Source of the DNA: Fimicolochytrium jonesii
Lineage: Eukaryota
Assembly (NCBI RefSeq): GCF_025526975.1
Contig: NW_026515673.1
Span: 868,001-932,000, forward strand
Reading direction: 5' to 3'
Length of the DNA: 64,000 nt
In this document: positions 15,440-60,871 of the stretch, in pieces
Numbering within the stretch: position 1 is the first letter of the stretch
How the letters are laid out: every line of letters begins with the position of its first letter
Notes under the pieces: model-generated
Seen by the model: only the letters and a program-made list of their open reading frames with translations
What the model was told of the DNA's origin: nothing
The model's database searches: none
Made by a program: the position numbers and the translations under genes

Positions 15440-17507
15440 TCAACTGGACCCCATAACATTCGTCATCGGCGCATAACTCTCACTCTTCAACACAATATAC
15501 TGCTCCGCATGCGCCTTCAACACCGCCTCCACACGCTCACCCCATTTCAGCGGATCCGGACCAAGTTCCCTCAGACAGTCTCCTAGCGCTTTACAACTGC
15601 CCACGGCGCGCGCCCACCCGGTGCCCATTGGCCAGAAGGGTTCCACGAGGGCGTCGCCGACGAGGGCTACTAGGAGGGTTTTTGGGTGTCTTGTGTTGCT
15701 CCCGGGGGGCGTGAAGGTGGAGGTAATTGCTTTACTGGGTTCGGTAGCGCAAGTTTTGCCGGTGAAGTCGAAGATGGCGACGTCCGGGCGGGGCGGGCCG
15801 CCTTTACTTGACGTGGTTTGGAGGAATTCGCTGTCCGGTGGCACACCTGCCATTGTTGCGACTTCTCTTGCAAATTTGAGTAAGTTGTCGCGGTCGACGT
15901 TATCACGTTGCACCAACTCCACGGGATCCGCGCGGTCTTCCTTGACAATTCCCTTGTTGAGCAGGGTGCTGCGTTTGGGCGTCATGACGAGGTAATGCGA
16001 TTCCTCAGTAATATACGAGGCAAGGTTCTCAAGATCCAGTCCTTTCTCTTTCAGCGAGTTGAAGAAAGGCGCGGAGAGATATGAGACGACTCCGCCCTGC
16101 ATGGCGTCGGCGGCGGCGGGCGAGTGGGAGGGGACGAAGTTGCAGGTGATACCTGTGGCGACGCCGGCGCGGAAGGAGGTACGGGAGAAGCCGAAGTCGG
16201 AGGAGAGTTTGGATTTTTCGCCGCCGGCTAGGACGAGGGTGTTGCATTTTAGGTCGTGTGGTGTTGAGGTGGTAGTGCGGGCTGTCCAGTAGGGGGTGTC
16301 TTTGTCGGGTTCGATGCCTGCTAGCTCGGCTTGGGGGATGACTGTGGGAGCAACGAGTTTGTTGTGTAGAGTGAGTACGGGTCCATTCATTAGACCGCGC
16401 CCTCGAAGTGAGCTTACTCTCAGCGCCTAAACACAAAGCCATCTTCATAAAAACAATCTGCATGCGTCTGATGGCGACGACATCTCGGTCCTGAACGCAA
16501 ATCTTGCGGTAAAAGTCTCTCGCCCCCAGCTGATGCACAAGCTCGTCCATGTCCTTTGTGTGTATCCTCATCACATTCACCCTGTTGAATGTGTCTGAAG
16601 GGAAGAATGAGCGTGAGAAAATGTTTCGTGCCAGTGGAGGAGAACTGAATAATACGTACTTCGCTTCTCAAGCACGACAATCTTGTCACATCTCAACAAA
16701 CACATCTCCACAGCAGCCCGAAGTCCTGCCGGCCCCGCGCCCACAATCAGTGCTCTCCTGCCCGCCGCATTCGATAAGTTTGTTGATGATGAAGTCTGCG
16801 AAACGTAATGTGGATCGCTGAACCGCGCTTCCATGCATTTCCAGAAATCGCCCAGATGGTGTGTCGCAGTCGCTGAATGCTTGTGAAGTAATGTGTATGT
16901 TTCGTACGGGGTCGTTGGCGCGGAGCCACCTTCACGATCTATACACGCCAGCTTCCATGCCTACAGGGGGGAACAAGCACTTAGGTTGTGGGTTGGATGA
17001 CGATATTTCAAACCGACATCATGCCCGCTCCGCTCGCGACAAGGGTGCTCTTCAGCTCATACAAAAGGACGACCGGCTCCGGCCCGCCTTCGCTCGCGAG
17101 TGTGTTGCGCCTTCAGGGCCGTACCCGCTCTGCTCTCTCGCTGTCGCATCCAACCCCTCGCCCCGCTCGTCGCTCTAACTCGCAACTCTCACGAAACCCA
17201 CCTCAAAAGCCTCCAGTATATCCAATAAGTCATCAGCCTCCGTAAACTTCCTGACAAGGGCAAAAATCGAGTTTCCACCACCAGAACTAGTACTACCCCT
17301 TGGGCCAAGAAGTGGTGAACTCGGAGGTAAGGGAGATTGGTTTCGGGGTGTTGCGGTGGAAGATATGGAAGATAGGGAGGTACCGCCGAGCATGTTGATA
17401 ATATCGCTTACGCTTGCTTTTGGGCTGCTGCTGCCTGTGGTGTGTTCGTCTGGCGGTGGAGTGATGGCGTGAGGAAAAGGATGGAGCGAGGAAGCGGAGT
17501 TGGACAT
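15440..17507 (-). CDS. MICAL-family flavoprotein monooxygenase domain protein, stand-alone, multi-exon
   Basis: Rossmann motif 'ALIVGAGPAGLRAAVEMCLL...VLEKR', then 'LGARDFYRKIC...VAIRRMQIVFMKMALCLGAE', 'LDLENLASYITEESHYLVMTPKRSTLLNKGIVKED', 'PDVAIFDFT' and 'LLVALVGDALVEPFWPMGTGWARA'. All parallel the MICAL MO domain. Confidence 0.87.
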
Positions 17508-36700: not shown

Positions 36701-39047
36701 AAAACGATGGACGCTATCGCCTCGTGAACGTTGGACAATGACGTGTCCATGAATTGTGCTAGGGAGTTATGTCCCAGTAGCACGTCCATGTACCCTTTCT
36801 TCAGTGCAAGAACGATATCATCCACCGAGACACAGTCACCCAAAGGCCTTCCGGCAGTTTTGGACTTGCGGCACGAGCGGGGGGCTGGTAACGGCGACGA
36901 GAATTTCGGTGATGGAGGTGGTATTGGGGGAGGCCTTTTGGGTAGAAGCGTGTGAGCATCAGAATGACGAACGCAGTTATCATCCGATTGTTGGAACGGG
37001 CCATACCGTGCATCCAGCTCCAAGCGCGTGCGCAGTCTTTCGTCCTCCATTTCGGGATACCAGATGTCAAATGTAGCGGTGCAGAGTTGCTTAACTGAGT
37101 CCCGAGCTGATTCCCCATTGAAAATCATACTGTGGATTTGTTGATCGAGTTCATTGCTGTACCACTGGGAGAGCAAAGTATCATCCACGGTTGCGCCTGT
37201 GTGATTCGAGAATTGGGGGAAATCAATGGCTGACGACGCTTTCTTGCGGAATGCACACGCTCTCCTACCATAGCTGAGACAGTCCTCTGGAAGGTCGCAT
37301 TGGCCGATACAATCGTCTTCCGAATCTGGTTTGATCAATCGCAGGACGGCGAAGCCCGGCATGATGGGGATGATAACCGCACAGCGCTCTATCGGTTCCA
37401 GGTCCACTTTTTCGGATGGCGAAGAACTTGGCGTTGTGCGGTCATTCAAAGCCATCCCTTTCGATTCTGCAGCGGAGGTGTCTTCCATACTGTTGGGTTC
37501 AAGATGTACCTGCACCATCAACACTTCCTTTTTTGTGTACTGTACGTCCCAAAATGAGATAGTCCCAGCGGTGTCCAGCAGCGGCGAGACGCATTGGTAT
37601 GTTTCCTTCTCCATCCATTCCGCGTCGAGCAACTGGGCATGAAATCGATGCACTATTTCCATCTTGGCCCCGGCGAACGGTAGAGCTTTGATATTCGCAG
37701 TGCTGGGCAAGCTGAGCGATGGTCCTCTCCCGAGCAATTTGCGTTCTCCTGTAGACGGTTCGTCGCCGCTATAAAATTCGTGTGAGAAGAGCACGAGTGA
37801 ACGGGAACAAGGGCGGTGTACATGTTAACATACCCGGCAACATGTGTGATGACTATAGGTACATGAGGTTGCTCAGTTTCTACCAGGGTGTGAATGTTAG
37901 CACAATGTGGTACGTAGATTGTAGCTTCAGCACCTTCCCACAATACCTGCATATCCATCGATGAGCATTCCCTCCCACTGTGTCTTGAAGGCCGACTTCT
38001 TTTGCGAGAGAGGTAAACATCGCCGAGTCGTCCCTGCGGGTTTACCCATCACGAGCTCCTTTCCATATGCAGGGTACAATGCCTTCTGCCGGAGCACCTT
38101 CATCAGCGTCGGTAAAGGAACGCCGTAGATGGCATCTGTCATCAGAGCTCCGGGCGCTAGGACGCCACCCAGGGCTGCAAGAACACACGAGAGAGTGGAT
38201 TGAATCTCAAAGTTCTACAACTTGGTCGTTCAGAAGGTTTTCTCGGTGGGATGTGTTTGTAGCGGGAACATACCTTGTTGTCCTCTATTTGCACACTCGG
38301 GAGGCTCGGAGTGGTGATCCATGATAAAGCAGCCCGTTTCTCCAGGAAAGCGCTCCACAGCCCCCCACCAAGCAGATGCTGCTGCATCACCTCCAAGCAC
38401 CGCGATACTCCGCATTCTGCACCGCCAAGTCCGACATACGTCCGCAAGTCCGCAACTGTGCTCGGTAACGCCGAGATGAAGTACATATAGTTCCGAAGCC
38501 TCACAGGAGCCGCGCCATCCGTCATCTGCTTCCTCGGTCTCACGGGAGATGGTAGAACCATCGACGAGCCTGACCCTCCCCAGTCCCACCGAAAATCCGT
38601 CAACGTCTTCCGGAGTGTGGTGGAAACCTTCTCAACAAACGACGGTGATGACTCCCAGGGCGACCGCTCCTCCCCATCCTCCTTCTCGATACCACTCTGA
38701 TTTTCGAGCTGCCCGTTCAAATCCGCCGCAAACTCTGCCAACGTCACAGGAATGAACTCTCGCGCGTGCTTCGTGACGGCTTTATGGAACGTGGAAACTG
38801 AGCCAAGGTCGAACAGCTGGTAGCTCCATCGAAAGCGGGGATCCACATGGATATGAAAGTATAGCAGTATCCGTAAAACTGTTATGCGAATGAAAGTCTC
38901 GAAGTCGGGAGGGGACTGTGCTGTGCCACCGGCCTCCGATGTGGTGAGAGTAGAAGAACCGGTATCTATCACGAAGACAACGTTCGGAATGGGCCGGTCG
39001 CGGGAGGAGGGCGACCCGAAGGACTGAAAGGCAGAGTCCTGCGACAT
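33753..39047 (-). CDS. Treslin/TICRR (Sld3)-like replication-initiation factor, multi-exon
   Basis: N-terminal vWA-like region 'VVFVIDTG...ITVLRILLYF...FRWSYQLFD...NYMYFISALPSTVADLRTYVG' resembling Treslin_N. Sld3-core-like 'RAKLQLVLLFDML...LMDRICIW...FVEPVLIKYY...FPDIVKSL'. Long basic tail rich in S/T-P sites. Confidence 0.72.
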
Positions 39048-39632
39048 CCTAGGTGTTGCTGCAAGCCAAAGTTCCCCGTGCCATTAGCGGCCCTGAGAAG
39101 ACGCTGTTCCAGGGCGATTTTGTCTTCCCTTGTCGAACCCCCGTCCTTTTCCGTCTCACCAGCTTCTCCGTAACGCTTGGAGGGCCTAGAATAACGCACA
39201 CCAATATCGCCTTTCACTTTCCGAATTAGCCTCTGATGGGCCTAGTCTTGAGACAATTTCTGCGTATTCCCGGCGCTTGCCCTGGTTCGAACTCCAGATC
39301 CAGACAGAATTCAAAAGGAAACGCGTCACATTCCGCGTCTGTCCGGTGGCCTGGACAATCTTCCGAGACTCAGATTCACGAAGCATCAGGGCGAGTAAGA
39401 GCACATCAAACATTTCTCTTTCCAGAGCGGTCACAGCACGGAGGGGAGCAGTTCGCTCAAAAATCGAATAATAAAGCTGTGCACAGTCATCCGATGGAAC
39501 GGTTTCAACCTCTCGTCCTATATACACAGTGCCGTACGCCGACATCGCCAGGGGCAAAAGCCCAACGCCGCAATCCCTCGCCTTTCTCTCCCTCCCATAG
39601 TTATCCCACACCTCAAACGTCCGACGTCTCGT

Positions 39633-42559
<2,927 letters not shown>

Positions 42560-54248: not shown

Positions 54249-56243
54249 ATGGCTTCTCCTCACATTATCGTTGTCGGCGGTGGTCTAGCCGGTTTGTCCG
54301 CTGCTCACACCATCTTGGAGCGCGGCGGGAACGTGATCCTTCTCGACAAGAACGGTTTCCTGGGAGGAAACTCTACCAAAGCGACGTCTGGTATCAACGG
54401 AGCCAACACCGCTACGCAGCGCAAGCTGAAGATTCCAGACACCTCCGAGATCTTCTACGAGGATTCCGCGAAATCTGCCCGTGATCTGATCGTGCCCCCA
54501 CTCACCAAGGTCCTGACGTACCAATCTGGCGCCGCCGTCGAATGGATCCAGGACAACTTCAAGGTCGACCTTTCGCTGGTGTCGCGTCTCGGTGGTCACT
54601 CCCAACCCCGTACGCACCGTGGAAAGGAAATGTTCCCTGGTATGACAATCACCTACGCGTTGATGGAACGTCTGGAAGATATCGCAAACGACACCCCTAC
54701 CCGCGCCAAGGTCATCAAGAAGGCCAACGTGAACAAAATCGTGAAGGAGAATGGAAAGGTTGTTGGTGTGGAGTATGAGAGGGATGGCAAGACGTACAAG
54801 GAATCTGGGCCGGTGATTGTCGCCACTGGTGGTTACGCTGCCGATTTTTCCGCTACCTCTCTCCTTAAGAAGTACCGCCCTGAGCTGCTCGATTTGCCTA
54901 CTACCAACGGAGACCATTGCACTGGTGACGGTATCAAGCTCACTGAGGCCATCGGTGGAAACACGTTGCACATGGAAAAGGTACAAGTTCACCCAACTGG
55001 TCTTGTTGACCTCAAGGAGCCCGACGCCAAGGTCAAGTTCCTTGCCGCTGAAGCTCTTCGTGGTGTCGGAGGTCTTCTCCTCGACGCCAACGGTCACCGT
55101 TTCTGTGATGAGCTTGGACACCGTGATTACGTGACTGGCAAGGTGAGAACGGCCAAAATTGGGGATGCTGGAGTTGACGGCTGAACATTTGGAACTAATT
55201 TCTTGATCCCAATGTAGATGTGGGAGAACAAGGGTCCCTTCCGGTTAATCCTGAACGGCAAGGGAGGAAAGGAGATCGAATGGCATTGCAAGCACTACAT
55301 GGGCCGTGGTCTCATGAAGCACTTCAAGGGAGCCGACGCCCTCGCCAAGGAGATGGGCATCAACGTGAAGGTTCTGGAAGAGACCTACACAAAATACAAC
55401 GAGATCGCCCGCACGAAGAAGGACCCCTTCGGCAAGAAATTCTTCCACAACGTCCCCTTCGTCCCCGACGACGAGTTTTGGGTCGCCATCGTCACCCCCG
55501 TCCTCCACTTCACCATGGGCGGAATTCAGATCGACGACCAATCCCGCGTGCTGGGTCACGGCGACAACAAGCCCGTTGACGGTCTCTTCGCCTGCGGTGA
55601 GGTCGCCGGCGGTGTGCACGGCGCCAACCGTCTCGGTGGATCCTCCCTCCTCGGATGTGTCGTCTACGGCCGTGTCGCTGGTGCCACCGCCGCCACTTAC
55701 ATCCTCGAAGAGCTGTCCAAGAACAACACCGCTGCTCGTCGTGTCGGTGGGATCGCTGGCCACCTTGCCTCTTCCCCGGTCTCCATCTCCGTCAACGGCC
55801 TCAAGATCACCCTCGCCGCCGACGACGGTTCCTCTTCCTCATCCGCCTCTACCGACGAGGGCGCCGCATCGCAAACCGAGCCCCGCCCCACTGAGGCCAA
55901 CACTGGACCAGAACCCAAGGGCAAGCCAGCTGCGAGCAAGGAGTACACGCTCGAGGAGGTTGCGAAGCATAACACGGAAAAGGACTGCTGGGTTGTTGTT
56001 AACGGCCAGGTGCTGGATGCGACCAACTTTTTGCCTGACCACCCGGGAGGCAAGAAGGCGATCATGCTTTACGCTGGTCGTGATGCAACTGAGGAGTTTA
56101 ACATGTTGCACAAGGTTTGTGAATATGCTTCCAGGTTTCTTCCTTCCACTCTCTTAAATCCAGTACTAACACGGTTCCCCCCCTAGCCCGAGGTCGTTGC
56201 CAAGTATGCGCCTGAGACAATCATTGGCACACTGAAGAAGTAG
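54249..56243 (+). CDS. Soluble fumarate reductase (Osm1/Frd1-type flavocytochrome) with C-terminal cytochrome b5 domain, 3 exons
   Basis: 'IIVVGGGLAGLSAA', 'GGNSTKATSGING', 'RLGGHSQPRTHR', 'VQVHPTG', 'LAAEALRG', 'HFTMGG', 'GGVHGANRLGGSSL'; b5 domain 'EEVAKHNTEKDCW...FLPDHPGG...DATEEF'. Confidence 0.94.
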
Positions 56244-56513
56244 AACTCTTGGAACCCTGCTTGATACCCCAACCCCGATCCCTCTCCTTTCCCTGCACTG
56301 TCCGTTTCCCCGATCTCTTTGCTGTTGTATTCACGTTTCTTTGTGCTTATGTATCAGTATAGCTGCCTTATCATGGTTCGAATCAAAAATTTACACGAAG
56401 AATACTGTCCCAGCTACCTACTTGAGTCCCGTACCCAAATGCCTCTCCGTTCGTCCAGGAACCACCACCTCGTTCGATGCAAACCTTCATCTATCGTCAC
56501 CATCCAAATTCCC

Positions 56514-57926: not shown

Positions 57927-60396
57927 ATGTCAAACAGCACCACCCGCTTCACTCTAGTCGCCGCCGCCCTACGCAACGGCGGCGGCATCGGCGTCAACAA
58001 CTGCCTGCCGTGGCGAATTCCTGGCGACATGACCTTCTTCCAGAAAGTCACAACCTGGCTAGGACGGGGCTCGTCGCAGCCTTTCACACACAACACAGAA
58101 CATGGCGATGCGACGTCTCCTCTCAATGTGGTTATTATGGGACGCAAGACGTGGGACTCGATACCGGCGCGGTTCAGGCCTTTGAAGGGGAGACTGAATA
58201 TTGTGTTGTCGAGACAGTCTCGGCTGAGGGATGCTATCCGGAGGTAAATTTCGAAGGAAGACATAGGTCTGAGCCTCTGCGGTACACGACGTTCTTCCTG
58301 GACACGACCTTAATGTAACCCACCAGTCTCGCCCCGCAGTTCCAGCATCCACGACAGCCCCGCGTACAGCTTCCCTACCCTCGAATCCGCCCTCGCCTAC
58401 CTGCAATCCATACCCCATAGCGCCATCTTCATCATCGGCGGAGCCCAACTCTACGCGAACTGCATAACCCATCACCAATGCGAGCGGATCCTGCTGACAG
58501 CCGTCGACCCACCCAACCCGATTGAATGCGACGCGTTCTTCCCGGAGATTCCTAGCGATCTGTTTAGATTGGCGAGTGGGAGAGAGTTTGCGAATGTGGT
58601 GGGGCAAGAGTACCCGGACGGGATTCGTGCGGAAAACGGGTATGGGTATGAGTTCCAGATGTGGGTTCGGCGCGATGATGAAAGGCAACGAACTGCCCGA
58701 GCGCCGTCAGAATTGCCGGTAGATCTCGCAACGTGCTCCTCCGACCGAGCCCACGGCCGAACAAGCCGACACCCCTTCCCCGACCCCTCCGTCTCTGCAA
58801 TCACCCCAGCGTCACAGACCCCACACGGCGCATCCTACTCTCTATCAAACTCCCACCCATTGCTCTCACTCCAAATCGACCCTTCGCTGGTCTGGCACCC
58901 CTCCGACATGTCCGTGCCGTCCACCATCCTCCCCAACGACCTCCTCCTCCTCGGCGGCGCCAACGCTCCGCCAGAGGGAGCTTACACCCCGCTGTTCACG
59001 CCGGAGAAAAGTGAACAGAGTTTTAGGACTGCGAGGTCGTCCGCTGGTAAAAGTGGGATACCTTCACCATCAGGAAGTGACCATCGCCGGGAGGAATCGA
59101 CACCGTGGGAAGGCTTCAACAGCACATTGGGCTCGACACCCAGTGAGCGGGCTGCCCGGAGCGATTCGTCGAGGAGGGATCATGACGGGGATAGAACAGT
59201 CACCTGTGAATCGAACTCGGTGTATGATTCGCTGATGATGCGTGTCCAGGAGGTGTTGATGCTCGAGGACCAGGAGAGTGCGGATGAAGAGGTGGTGGTG
59301 GATCCGGAAACGAGTTTGTTGCAGAAGGTGCACGAGATTTTGCAGGGGGGTGAGGGAGTTACTATCGTGGGTATGCGAGAGGGTGCAGTTGCGCAAAGGA
59401 GGTCGAATCAACAGCCGATTGCCCTGGATGTATCTGGCCATCGAGACCACTCCGCCCGTCGGGATAACGACCAAGGAGATGAACAACAAGACGACTTCCC
59501 CCACTCAGACCCCCTCCCCGGCCAAACCAACATCGACTTCTCCCTCGCGGACGGCACGATGGCCATGTCGGACGTTGCGGCCGCCGTGCATGCCAAAACA
59601 ACGGTTAGGTCGAGACAGCCCACGCGGTACGGGGAATGGAATGCGCTGCGTGAGTTGGGTGGTACGAGGCGGGATGTGGGGGGTAGACCGGTTGTGGGAG
59701 GGTTAGCTGGTGCCCCGCCGCCACCTGTGAGAGGAACAGTGAGGGAAAGGCCCGTGGATCCGTCTATATGGGTGCCGCGGATCGAGTATGAGTCGTTTGT
59801 GAGCAATGGGGGGGAGGATAGTGTTGCTGAGGTATTGTTGCAAATCAGAAGAGTTGGGTCTTGAACTTGGGGTTCGGGCGGGGAACTGATGGTTTTCTTT
59901 ATGATGTTTGTAGCATGAACTTGCCCCCATCTTGGCGAAATACGCGGCTATCACTGCGGCCGGCCGGCGGCAACCGTCCTTGTATCAACATTCAAAGCAA
60001 GTGTTACACCAAAACCATGTTGGGCAGCGGTCAGCGGGACCAGCCGGGCAGTTCCCGCCTCACGAAATCCACCGCCCAACCTCCCTCAGCAGTGACGAGG
60101 AGGACTACGACTCGTACACGGCCCCACCGTCCGCCATAAATCTGACCAATATGGACAGCACAACCTTCGCCGACCAGCTCTCCCTTGCGAGTATGGAGTA
60201 TATGAAGCGGTATGGGCTCGCTGGGGCTGGCGGTAGCGGTGCGCAATCGGAAAAATTGGGGAAGGAGGCAGCGGGTACAAACGCATCGGTGCAAAGATTG
60301 CGCTCGGTGCAACGTGAGCAGCTGAGTAAAGTGTTGGATGTGGAGCGGATTAGGAGGTTGCCGAAGTTGGGGATGCCTGGGCCGAGGAGGGGGTGA
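57927..60396 (+). CDS. Dihydrofolate reductase fused in frame to a STIL/Ana2/SAS-5-like C-terminal region (exons 57927-58243, 58340-59852, 59914-60396; 770 aa)
   Basis: DHFR motifs 'GIGVNNCLPWRIPGDMTFF', 'NVVIMGRKTWDSIP..FRPLKGRLNIVLSR', 'IFIIGGAQLY', 'CDAFFP', 'YEFQMWVR' with no stop afterwards. C-terminal 'LSLASMEYMKRYGL' and 'VLDVERIRRLPKL'. Confidence 0.75.
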
Positions 60397-60581: not shown

Positions 60582-60783
60582 TCAGCGGAGAGAACCGTCC
60601 TTTTTCTTCACGAATAAGACTGGCGCACCGACAGGGGACTTTGAGGGTTTGATGAATCCTTTGGCAAGGTTTTCTTCGAGGTATTCGCAGAGTGCTTTCA
60701 TTTCTGGTTCGCTGAGGTTGTAGATCGGGCCGAAAGGTGGCTGCTTGCCTTCTTCCAGATCGATAGGACAGTCGTAGGGCCAT
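60582..60783 (-). mobile_element. Ty3/gypsy LTR-retrotransposon relic (start of RT domain)
   Basis: '[65 protein letters not shown]' is truncated just before the usual CVDYR. No LTRs seen. Confidence 0.88.
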
Positions 60784-60871
60784 TTCTGAGCCTCAATGAT
60801 ATCCACTCCGCTTCATGACGTTGGATTAATATACTGTATATGTACAAACCGGGTAACGCGCTTCCATGCGA

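Follow-up and report, generated by a model that had tools for sequence, protein, structure and literature searches.

The STAN and TIM motifs are described as the marks common to the STIL/Ana2/SAS-5 family of centriole proteins (PMC4113102 and PMC2819680, in the portions available). From flagellated fungi, the accessible part of PMC13358043 reports eight STIL proteins, all eight of which carry the STIL_N domain, and the main text of PMC12659703, as far as it is accessible, does not name STIL beyond one match to the start of a word. Dihydrofolate reductase (DHFR) occurs in several kinds of fusion. A preliminary description of the locus studied here gave thymidylate synthase as the usual partner, as in DHFR-TS, but FSH1-DHFR proteins of Taphrina and N-terminally extended DHFRs of the Xylariales are also found. 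A terminal fusion is tolerated by DHFR in these proteins, as it is here; their partners with a Pfam name are enzymes, whereas the partner at the present locus is a structural scaffold. In the Xylariales, four proteins (P0008–P0011) have a common N-terminal domain of approximately 320 amino acids before DHFR and keep a methionine at the usual DHFR start; they may be true fusions or the outcome of the same annotation merge made several times.

We analyzed a window of 64,000 nucleotides from contig NW_026515673.1 of Fimicolochytrium jonesii, a chytrid placed in the Spizellomycetales, Powellomycetaceae. In this window a DHFR continues without a stop codon into a STIL/Ana2-like tail. Both halves are of known kinds. 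No report of a DHFR-STIL fusion was found in the literature searched, which was covered at the level of titles and listings and mostly outside subscription papers.

In the assembly, the fused reading frame is free of stops and runs on the forward strand, in one frame, from the ATG at 57927 to the stop at 60394–60396 (Table 1). The corrected model has a coding sequence of 2292 nt and a protein of 763 amino acids, with two canonical introns, neither of which coincides with the junction between DHFR and tail. The junction lies inside exon 2 and the fusion is, therefore, not the product of an invented intron, which rules out an annotation merge of that kind. A deposited protein of 763 amino acids, named Fimicolochytrium jonesii and assigned to Pfam DHFR (P0001), follows the same fused model as the assembly and is identical to exon 3 of the window over all 160 residues in a search with that exon. 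The P0001 model may itself be just the work of a gene caller tracking the open frame.

The start codon, the end of DHFR at YEFQMWVRR (58673) without a stop, and an open frame beyond it had all been recognized in the preliminary description, and the frame indeed stays open through all of exon 2. The acceptor AG at 59913, the branch-like motif near 59886 and the stop codon are likewise present in the sequence, and the seven peptides quoted there all lie where they had been placed. The second intron, by contrast, had to be revised. It had been given as 61 nt with a donor at 59853, for a total of 2,313 nt and 770 amino acids, whereas P0001 is spliced at 59832, which lengthens the intron to 82 nt and shortens the product to the size given above. 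Both donors are in phase, and the spacing of relatives across the splice is kept only with the donor at 59832 (DSVAE-HELAPILAKY versus DTIVERALAPLFAKY). The donor at 59853 was ruled out by the P0001 splice together with this homologue spacing.

Table 1. Features of the fused DHFR-tail gene; positions refer to the 64,000-nt window.
Feature	Position	Strand	Basis
Exon 1, DHFR N-terminal half, aa 1–106	57927..58243	+	Pfam DHFR_1 E 6.7e-17; P0001
Intron 1, 96 nt, GT-AG, phase 2	58244..58339	+	Sequence; spliced product identical to P0001
Exon 2, first part, DHFR C-terminal half, to aa 217	58340..58673	+	Pfam E 6.7e-8; 52% identity to S. punctatus DHFR
Linker, aa 218–270, without stop or in-frame ATG	58674..58832	+	Homology, periodicity and frame scans
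Tandem TGA-TGA, -1 frame, directly 3' of DHFR end; candidate former stop	58676..58681	+	23/5407 codon positions of the window
Conserved N-terminal block of the STIL/Ana2-like family, aa 271–325, HPLL and PPxGxYxPxF motifs	58833..58997	+	Alignment with relatives
Two conserved amphipathic helices, aa 397–411 and 428–441; candidate counterpart of the central coiled coil	59211..59345	+	Alignment; AlphaFold pLDDT 82, 88
STAN-like region, first part, aa 585–603	59775..59831	+	Family alignment
Intron 2, 82 nt, GT-AG, phase 0	59832..59913	+	P0001 splice; homologue spacing
Exon 3, STAN-like region, second part, aa 604–705	59914..60219	+	Family alignment
TIM motif, aa 740–756	60322..60372	+	Best of 127,894 positions against human STIL peptide
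Stop codon	60394..60396	+	Sequence

The N-terminal half (residues 1–217) matches the Pfam model DHFR_1 (PF00186) with 93 bits against a cut-off of 25 (E 2e-26), and is 52% identical to the stand-alone DHFR of Spizellomyces punctatus (KNC95876, 228 aa). All 37 columns that are invariant in an alignment of seven sequences, the other six being fungal DHFRs, are kept, and the substrate and NADPH motifs are all found in this alignment (LPW, the acidic residue, which is D35, MGRKTW, RPL, GG and DxFFP). The catalytic motifs of the monofunctional S. punctatus enzyme are intact as in the fusion, and that protein ends about 10 residues past the last strand. In a tree of 27 rows, the DHFR domain groups with two Spizellomyces DHFRs and one long row at a node with support of 90/88 (not starred). 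Because of this grouping the domain is likely a native enzyme of chytrid type, and a horizontal origin was ruled out. No second F. jonesii DHFR appears among the 120 matches listed of 411 short DHFR matches; Geranomyces and Phlyctochytrium DHFRs are likewise absent from those listed, and coverage of the nearest relatives is therefore thin. Protein searches with exon 3 and with the whole protein returned no second F. jonesii copy of the tail. As no second copy of either half is found among these matches, the fused locus probably supplies both the DHFR and the tail protein of this species.

The assignment of the tail (residues 271–763) is supported by motifs. The human STIL C-terminal peptide 1271–1287 (PMC4477857, as given in its accessible text) scores 44 at 60322 and 26 at the next best of the six-frame positions of the window, and the tail motif shares 9 of 12 residues with it; LPKL within the motif is invariant in 23 sequences. 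Upstream of the TIM lies a conserved bipartite region that matches STAN more weakly than the terminal motif matches TIM and was placed by position, by length and by a serine aligned by eye. This serine, S693, is likely the counterpart of the Plk4 site S1116 described for human STIL (PMC4477857, in the part available). An 11-residue human peptide around S1116 does not by itself single out the STAN-like site in the window. A short amphipathic segment had previously been suggested as the central coiled coil; alignment and AlphaFold show two conserved amphipathic helices in this part, and the solved STIL/Ana2 chains, in a PDB sequence search, have no significant match to the tail. AlphaFold with a 23-row alignment predicts short confident helices at the conserved places (block pLDDT 82, 88) and low confidence elsewhere; this alignment has no DHFR rows, and the DHFR part of the model is uninformative. 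A single-sequence model of the fusion (pLDDT 34.6) and a poor mixed alignment of DHFR and tail were set aside.

The tail has no match to the Pfam STIL models, and STIL_N (PF15253) is detected in 0/6 and 0/34 of the tail-family proteins. A search of the ESM Atlas for a STIL label returned nothing significant (scores below 0.9). The tail-family profile reaches seven fragments, which we take to be animal-like, and an HMM built from these scores P0001 at E 0.0076, a value that is not independent of the profile. The CPAP-binding motif PRxxPxP, which is a metazoan consensus and is also unclear in worm SAS-5 according to the accessible part of PMC3776556, is absent from P0001 and occurs in 3 of 41 family proteins, where its positions do not align; P0001 contains no KEN box. 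The STIL/Ana2-like character proposed for the tail in the preliminary description is thus borne out by the TIM match and the Ana2-like layout and not by Pfam, PDB or Atlas matches. We consider it highly probable that the tail is a STIL/Ana2 homologue. It would be expected to work like Ana2, with the central helices and the STAN part as candidate elements.

The tail is a member of a chytrid protein family that is unannotated, has STAN-like and TIM motifs and lacks STIL_N (P0002–P0007, P0157–P0201). Besides P0001, the search with exon 3 recovered five proteins out of 4054 candidates, and all five belong to the Spizellomycetales. A profile of six tail proteins recovered 36 proteins at E ≤ 0.001 among 1.84 billion representatives. 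Ten of the 36 were checked, of which 4 are assigned to an organism, and the matches include proteins from Gaertneriomyces, Borealophlyctis, Batrachochytrium and Entophlyctis. Members have a common order of N-terminal block (271–325), helices (397–411 and 428–441), bipartite region (585–705) and terminal motif (740–756), in the numbering of P0001. The HPLL-type motif is found in 22 of 41 family proteins, and the N-terminal block lies 2–140 residues from the protein's own start in 21 of 40 other members scanned; many of the 51 other members are fragments. Over this block, P0001 and Spizellomyces palustris share 13 of 17 residues. A quick tree search on the tail gave no resolved branching order. 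Stand-alone homologues from S. palustris (TPX57756), P. arcticum (KAI9105318), Geranomyces (KAJ3178496), Gaertneriomyces (KAI9002696) and B. dendrobatidis (EGF84215) have the same blocks in the same order as P0001. All five are named 'hypothetical', none carries DHFR, and their HPLL block lies 2–140 residues from their own start.

In comparison with STIL, Ana2 and SAS-5, as they are presented in the available parts of PMC2819680, PMC4113102 and PMC4477857, the tail is similarly mostly disordered, with central amphipathic helices, a C-terminal STAN-like region and a terminal TIM. The STAN-like region spans 53–123 residues across the chytrid family, against approximately 90 for STAN in animals. 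Unlike those proteins, the tail lacks STIL_N and, in P0001, the PRxxPxP and KEN motifs, has two short helices in place of one coiled coil, carries a chytrid-specific N-terminal block, and is preceded by DHFR. TPX57756 and EGF84215 are not listed in the STIL table of PMC13358043, as far as that table is accessible, though neighbouring accessions are. The chytrid tail family thus seems to be a different set from the STIL orthogroup of that survey, and chytrids may carry STIL in two genes, one with STIL_N and one with STAN and TIM.

The fusion appears to be confined to one species. A DHFR HMM matches 1 of 52 tail-family proteins, namely P0001, and the tail-family HMM matches none of 149 other DHFR proteins. 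A whole-protein search among proteins of 419–1336 amino acids gave 31 matches, P0001 being the sole one with both halves. The preliminary description knew of no DHFR-STIL fusion, and none was found in any other protein. Metagenome scans gave 178 and 168 pattern matches and no confirmed locus, so that neither protein nor metagenome searches found the fusion in a second genome. The DHFR and tail genes lie on separate contigs in S. palustris (93,428 and 37,413 bases) and in E. helioformis (82,488 and 331,930 bases) and are not neighbours there, as far as the assemblies show. In Geranomyces, of the same family as F. jonesii, the tails are stand-alone.

The junction itself has the look of a recently lost stop. 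The in-frame ATGs near it are those at 58659, inside DHFR, and 58908; there is none from the DHFR end to the conserved block, a distance of 159 nt, which falls well below the 585 and 980 nt that separate the genes of two co-directional pairs in the window. A second start at 58908, raised in the preliminary description as one case against a fusion, is unlikely because the conserved block begins upstream, at 58833, and would be lost from a protein starting there (M296); a stand-alone tail from this ATG was ruled out on these grounds. The tandem TGA at 58676–58681 sits where DHFR orthologues end. A single out-of-frame stop within 9 nt is common in the window (983 of 5407 codon positions), whereas a tandem is rare, although this comparison was made after the fact. 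The linker has no significant homology to the N-termini of relatives (1 of 15 comparisons at p < 0.05, taken as chance) and shows no codon periodicity, with 7 of 97 left-out coding windows and 30 of 75 stop-free windows outside long ORFs scoring as low; this evidence is weak, as the conserved block and residues 452–496 score equally low. No branch-like motif was found at 58494–59230 and there is, therefore, no evident intron in the linker, which is likely to consist of captured intergenic or UTR DNA and a disordered N-terminus.

Two compositional features were observed over the same region. The GC skew between 57500 and 60400 turns from C-rich to G-rich in the course of each exon, with three such swings inside exon 2; one of the C-rich phases begins at approximately 58700–58990 and resembles the 5' ends of exons. 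Both the linker and the N-terminal block are overlapped by a stop-free +1 frame of 170 codons (58723–59235, forward strand), which does not begin with an ATG and is probably a result of the C-richness.

We favour, with reasonable confidence, a recent lineage-restricted stop-loss fusion that is expressed as one protein with two functions. The DHFR and STIL/Ana2-like genes would have come to stand head to tail in the F. jonesii lineage, and a small frameshift is likely to have recently removed the DHFR stop. A single mRNA from the DHFR promoter would then give the 763-residue protein, in which the folded N-terminal domain is predicted to reduce dihydrofolate as usual. The vertebrate STIL N-terminus is a folded domain, and fly Ana2 has none; in animals, E2F controls both the DHFR and the STIL genes, which gives them a common G1/S timing. 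Tolerance of the fusion could be explained by the need for both proteins around S phase and by the freedom of the tail N-terminus to vary. The disordered tail is predicted to act as a Plk4-activated, SAS-6-recruiting procentriole factor through its central helices, STAN and TIM, and Plk4 is present in chytrids according to the accessible part of PMC6070874. The presence of DHFR at the centriole would be incidental and not a selected function. This reading is supported by the stand-alone relatives that both halves have in other chytrids; the evidence for the fusion comes from one genome assembly.

A missing base at the junction explains the read-through, be it a loss during evolution or one made by the assembly, and the tandem TGA fits an assembly error as well as a real mutation. 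We regard it as unlikely that a base near 58660–58680 is missing from the assembly, or is present in just one haplotype because of a heterozygous indel, with DHFR in truth stopping at 58676–58681 and the STIL-like gene beginning at an ATG within the final codons of DHFR, on an overlapping or dicistronic transcript. The position of the tandem TGA, exactly at the orthologue end, and the absence of the fusion from the other proteins searched agree with such an error. When single-base insertions were simulated across the junction, 82 of the 260 gave back a DHFR no longer than 237 amino acids together with an ATG in frame with the tail, so a single assembly indel would be enough to yield two overlapping ORFs; this ATG lies 52–64 codons before the block, a distance comparable to that in relatives (in Geranomyces and Phlyctochytrium, HPLL is at residue 45–72). 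This arrangement requires, however, zero intergenic space, compared with the measured co-directional gaps of 585 and 980 nt, and either re-initiation or transcription that begins within the DHFR coding exon. For fungi, polycistronic transcripts have been reported (PMC4503453, in its accessible part). The contig is 1.1 Mb long, the window contains no N and the junction has no long homopolymer, all of which speak against an error at this point.

If the sequence is correct, it could also give several products, with the tail made alone from an internal start and free DHFR released by -1 frameshifting or linker cleavage. Candidate starts in frame and upstream of the conserved block exist at ATG 58659, in the last DHFR strand, and at the near-cognate TTG 58713 and ACG 58731, and the TGA pair lies in the -1 frame. 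Uncoupled levels would be useful, and the dosage problem keeps this explanation alive, since excess STIL amplifies centrosomes in human cells (45% of cells; PMC4477857, in the part available). We nevertheless consider it quite unlikely: no canonical slippery heptamer precedes 58676, two candidate introns from GT 58719 have no branch-like motif and, on manual inspection, yield no early stop, and the protein collection holds no isoform (a cluster of one). Very improbable, in our judgement, is an adaptive tether selected for folate reduction at the nucleus-associated centriole or for coupling dTMP supply to centriole duplication. Tetrahydrofolate diffuses freely, the linker is not conserved and the fusion is seen in one species. 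In its favour, both halves are intact and conserved and act around S phase; for STIL, this timing is given in the accessible part of PMC6070874. The tethering of a folate enzyme to the SAS-6-recruiting scaffold, as proposed in the preliminary description, is less likely than a tolerated read-through because one species only is involved and the junction resembles a recently lost stop.

A more extended proposal, which we put forward tentatively, is that the only DHFR and the only Ana2-type factor of F. jonesii are one polypeptide, with scaffold dose hard-wired to a dTMP-cycle enzyme and DHFR present at procentrioles, and that chytrids generally have an overlooked Ana2-like STAN/TIM gene apart from the STIL_N gene, i.e. 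a split STIL. If the fusion is real, it provides a natural test of the constraint on the dose and N-terminus of STIL/Ana2, places a limiting centriole factor under the promoter and stability of a housekeeping enzyme, and represents a gene fusion caught early, with the former stop still legible. Should the junction prove to be an assembly error, the finding of the chytrid STAN/TIM family would stand on its own. This family, with members in Spizellomyces, Batrachochytrium and others, is missing from one recent survey of the fungal flagellum (PMC13358043, in its accessible part), and its proteins offer direct candidate SAS-6 partners in chytrids that are genetically tractable.

The surroundings of the fused gene contain several other recognizable sequences. 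A 76-codon fragment of a Ty3/gypsy reverse transcriptase (60585–60812, reverse strand; phmmer E 1.7e-4 to the Ty3 RT 4ol8) lies 190 nt past the stop of the fused gene and is possibly a trace of local rearrangement. MCM5 (38160–40154, reverse strand) precedes a Treslin-like gene by 585 nt (Treslin_N E 7e-5, below the Pfam cut-off), the two forming a tandem of replication-initiation genes approximately 18 kb from the DHFR locus. A MICAL-type Rossmann domain (PF25413, E 3e-24) is encoded at 15443–16426 on the reverse strand, and a fumarate reductase-like FAD_binding_2 protein with a C-terminal cytochrome b5 domain, an arrangement usual in fungi, at 54252–56250 on the forward strand.
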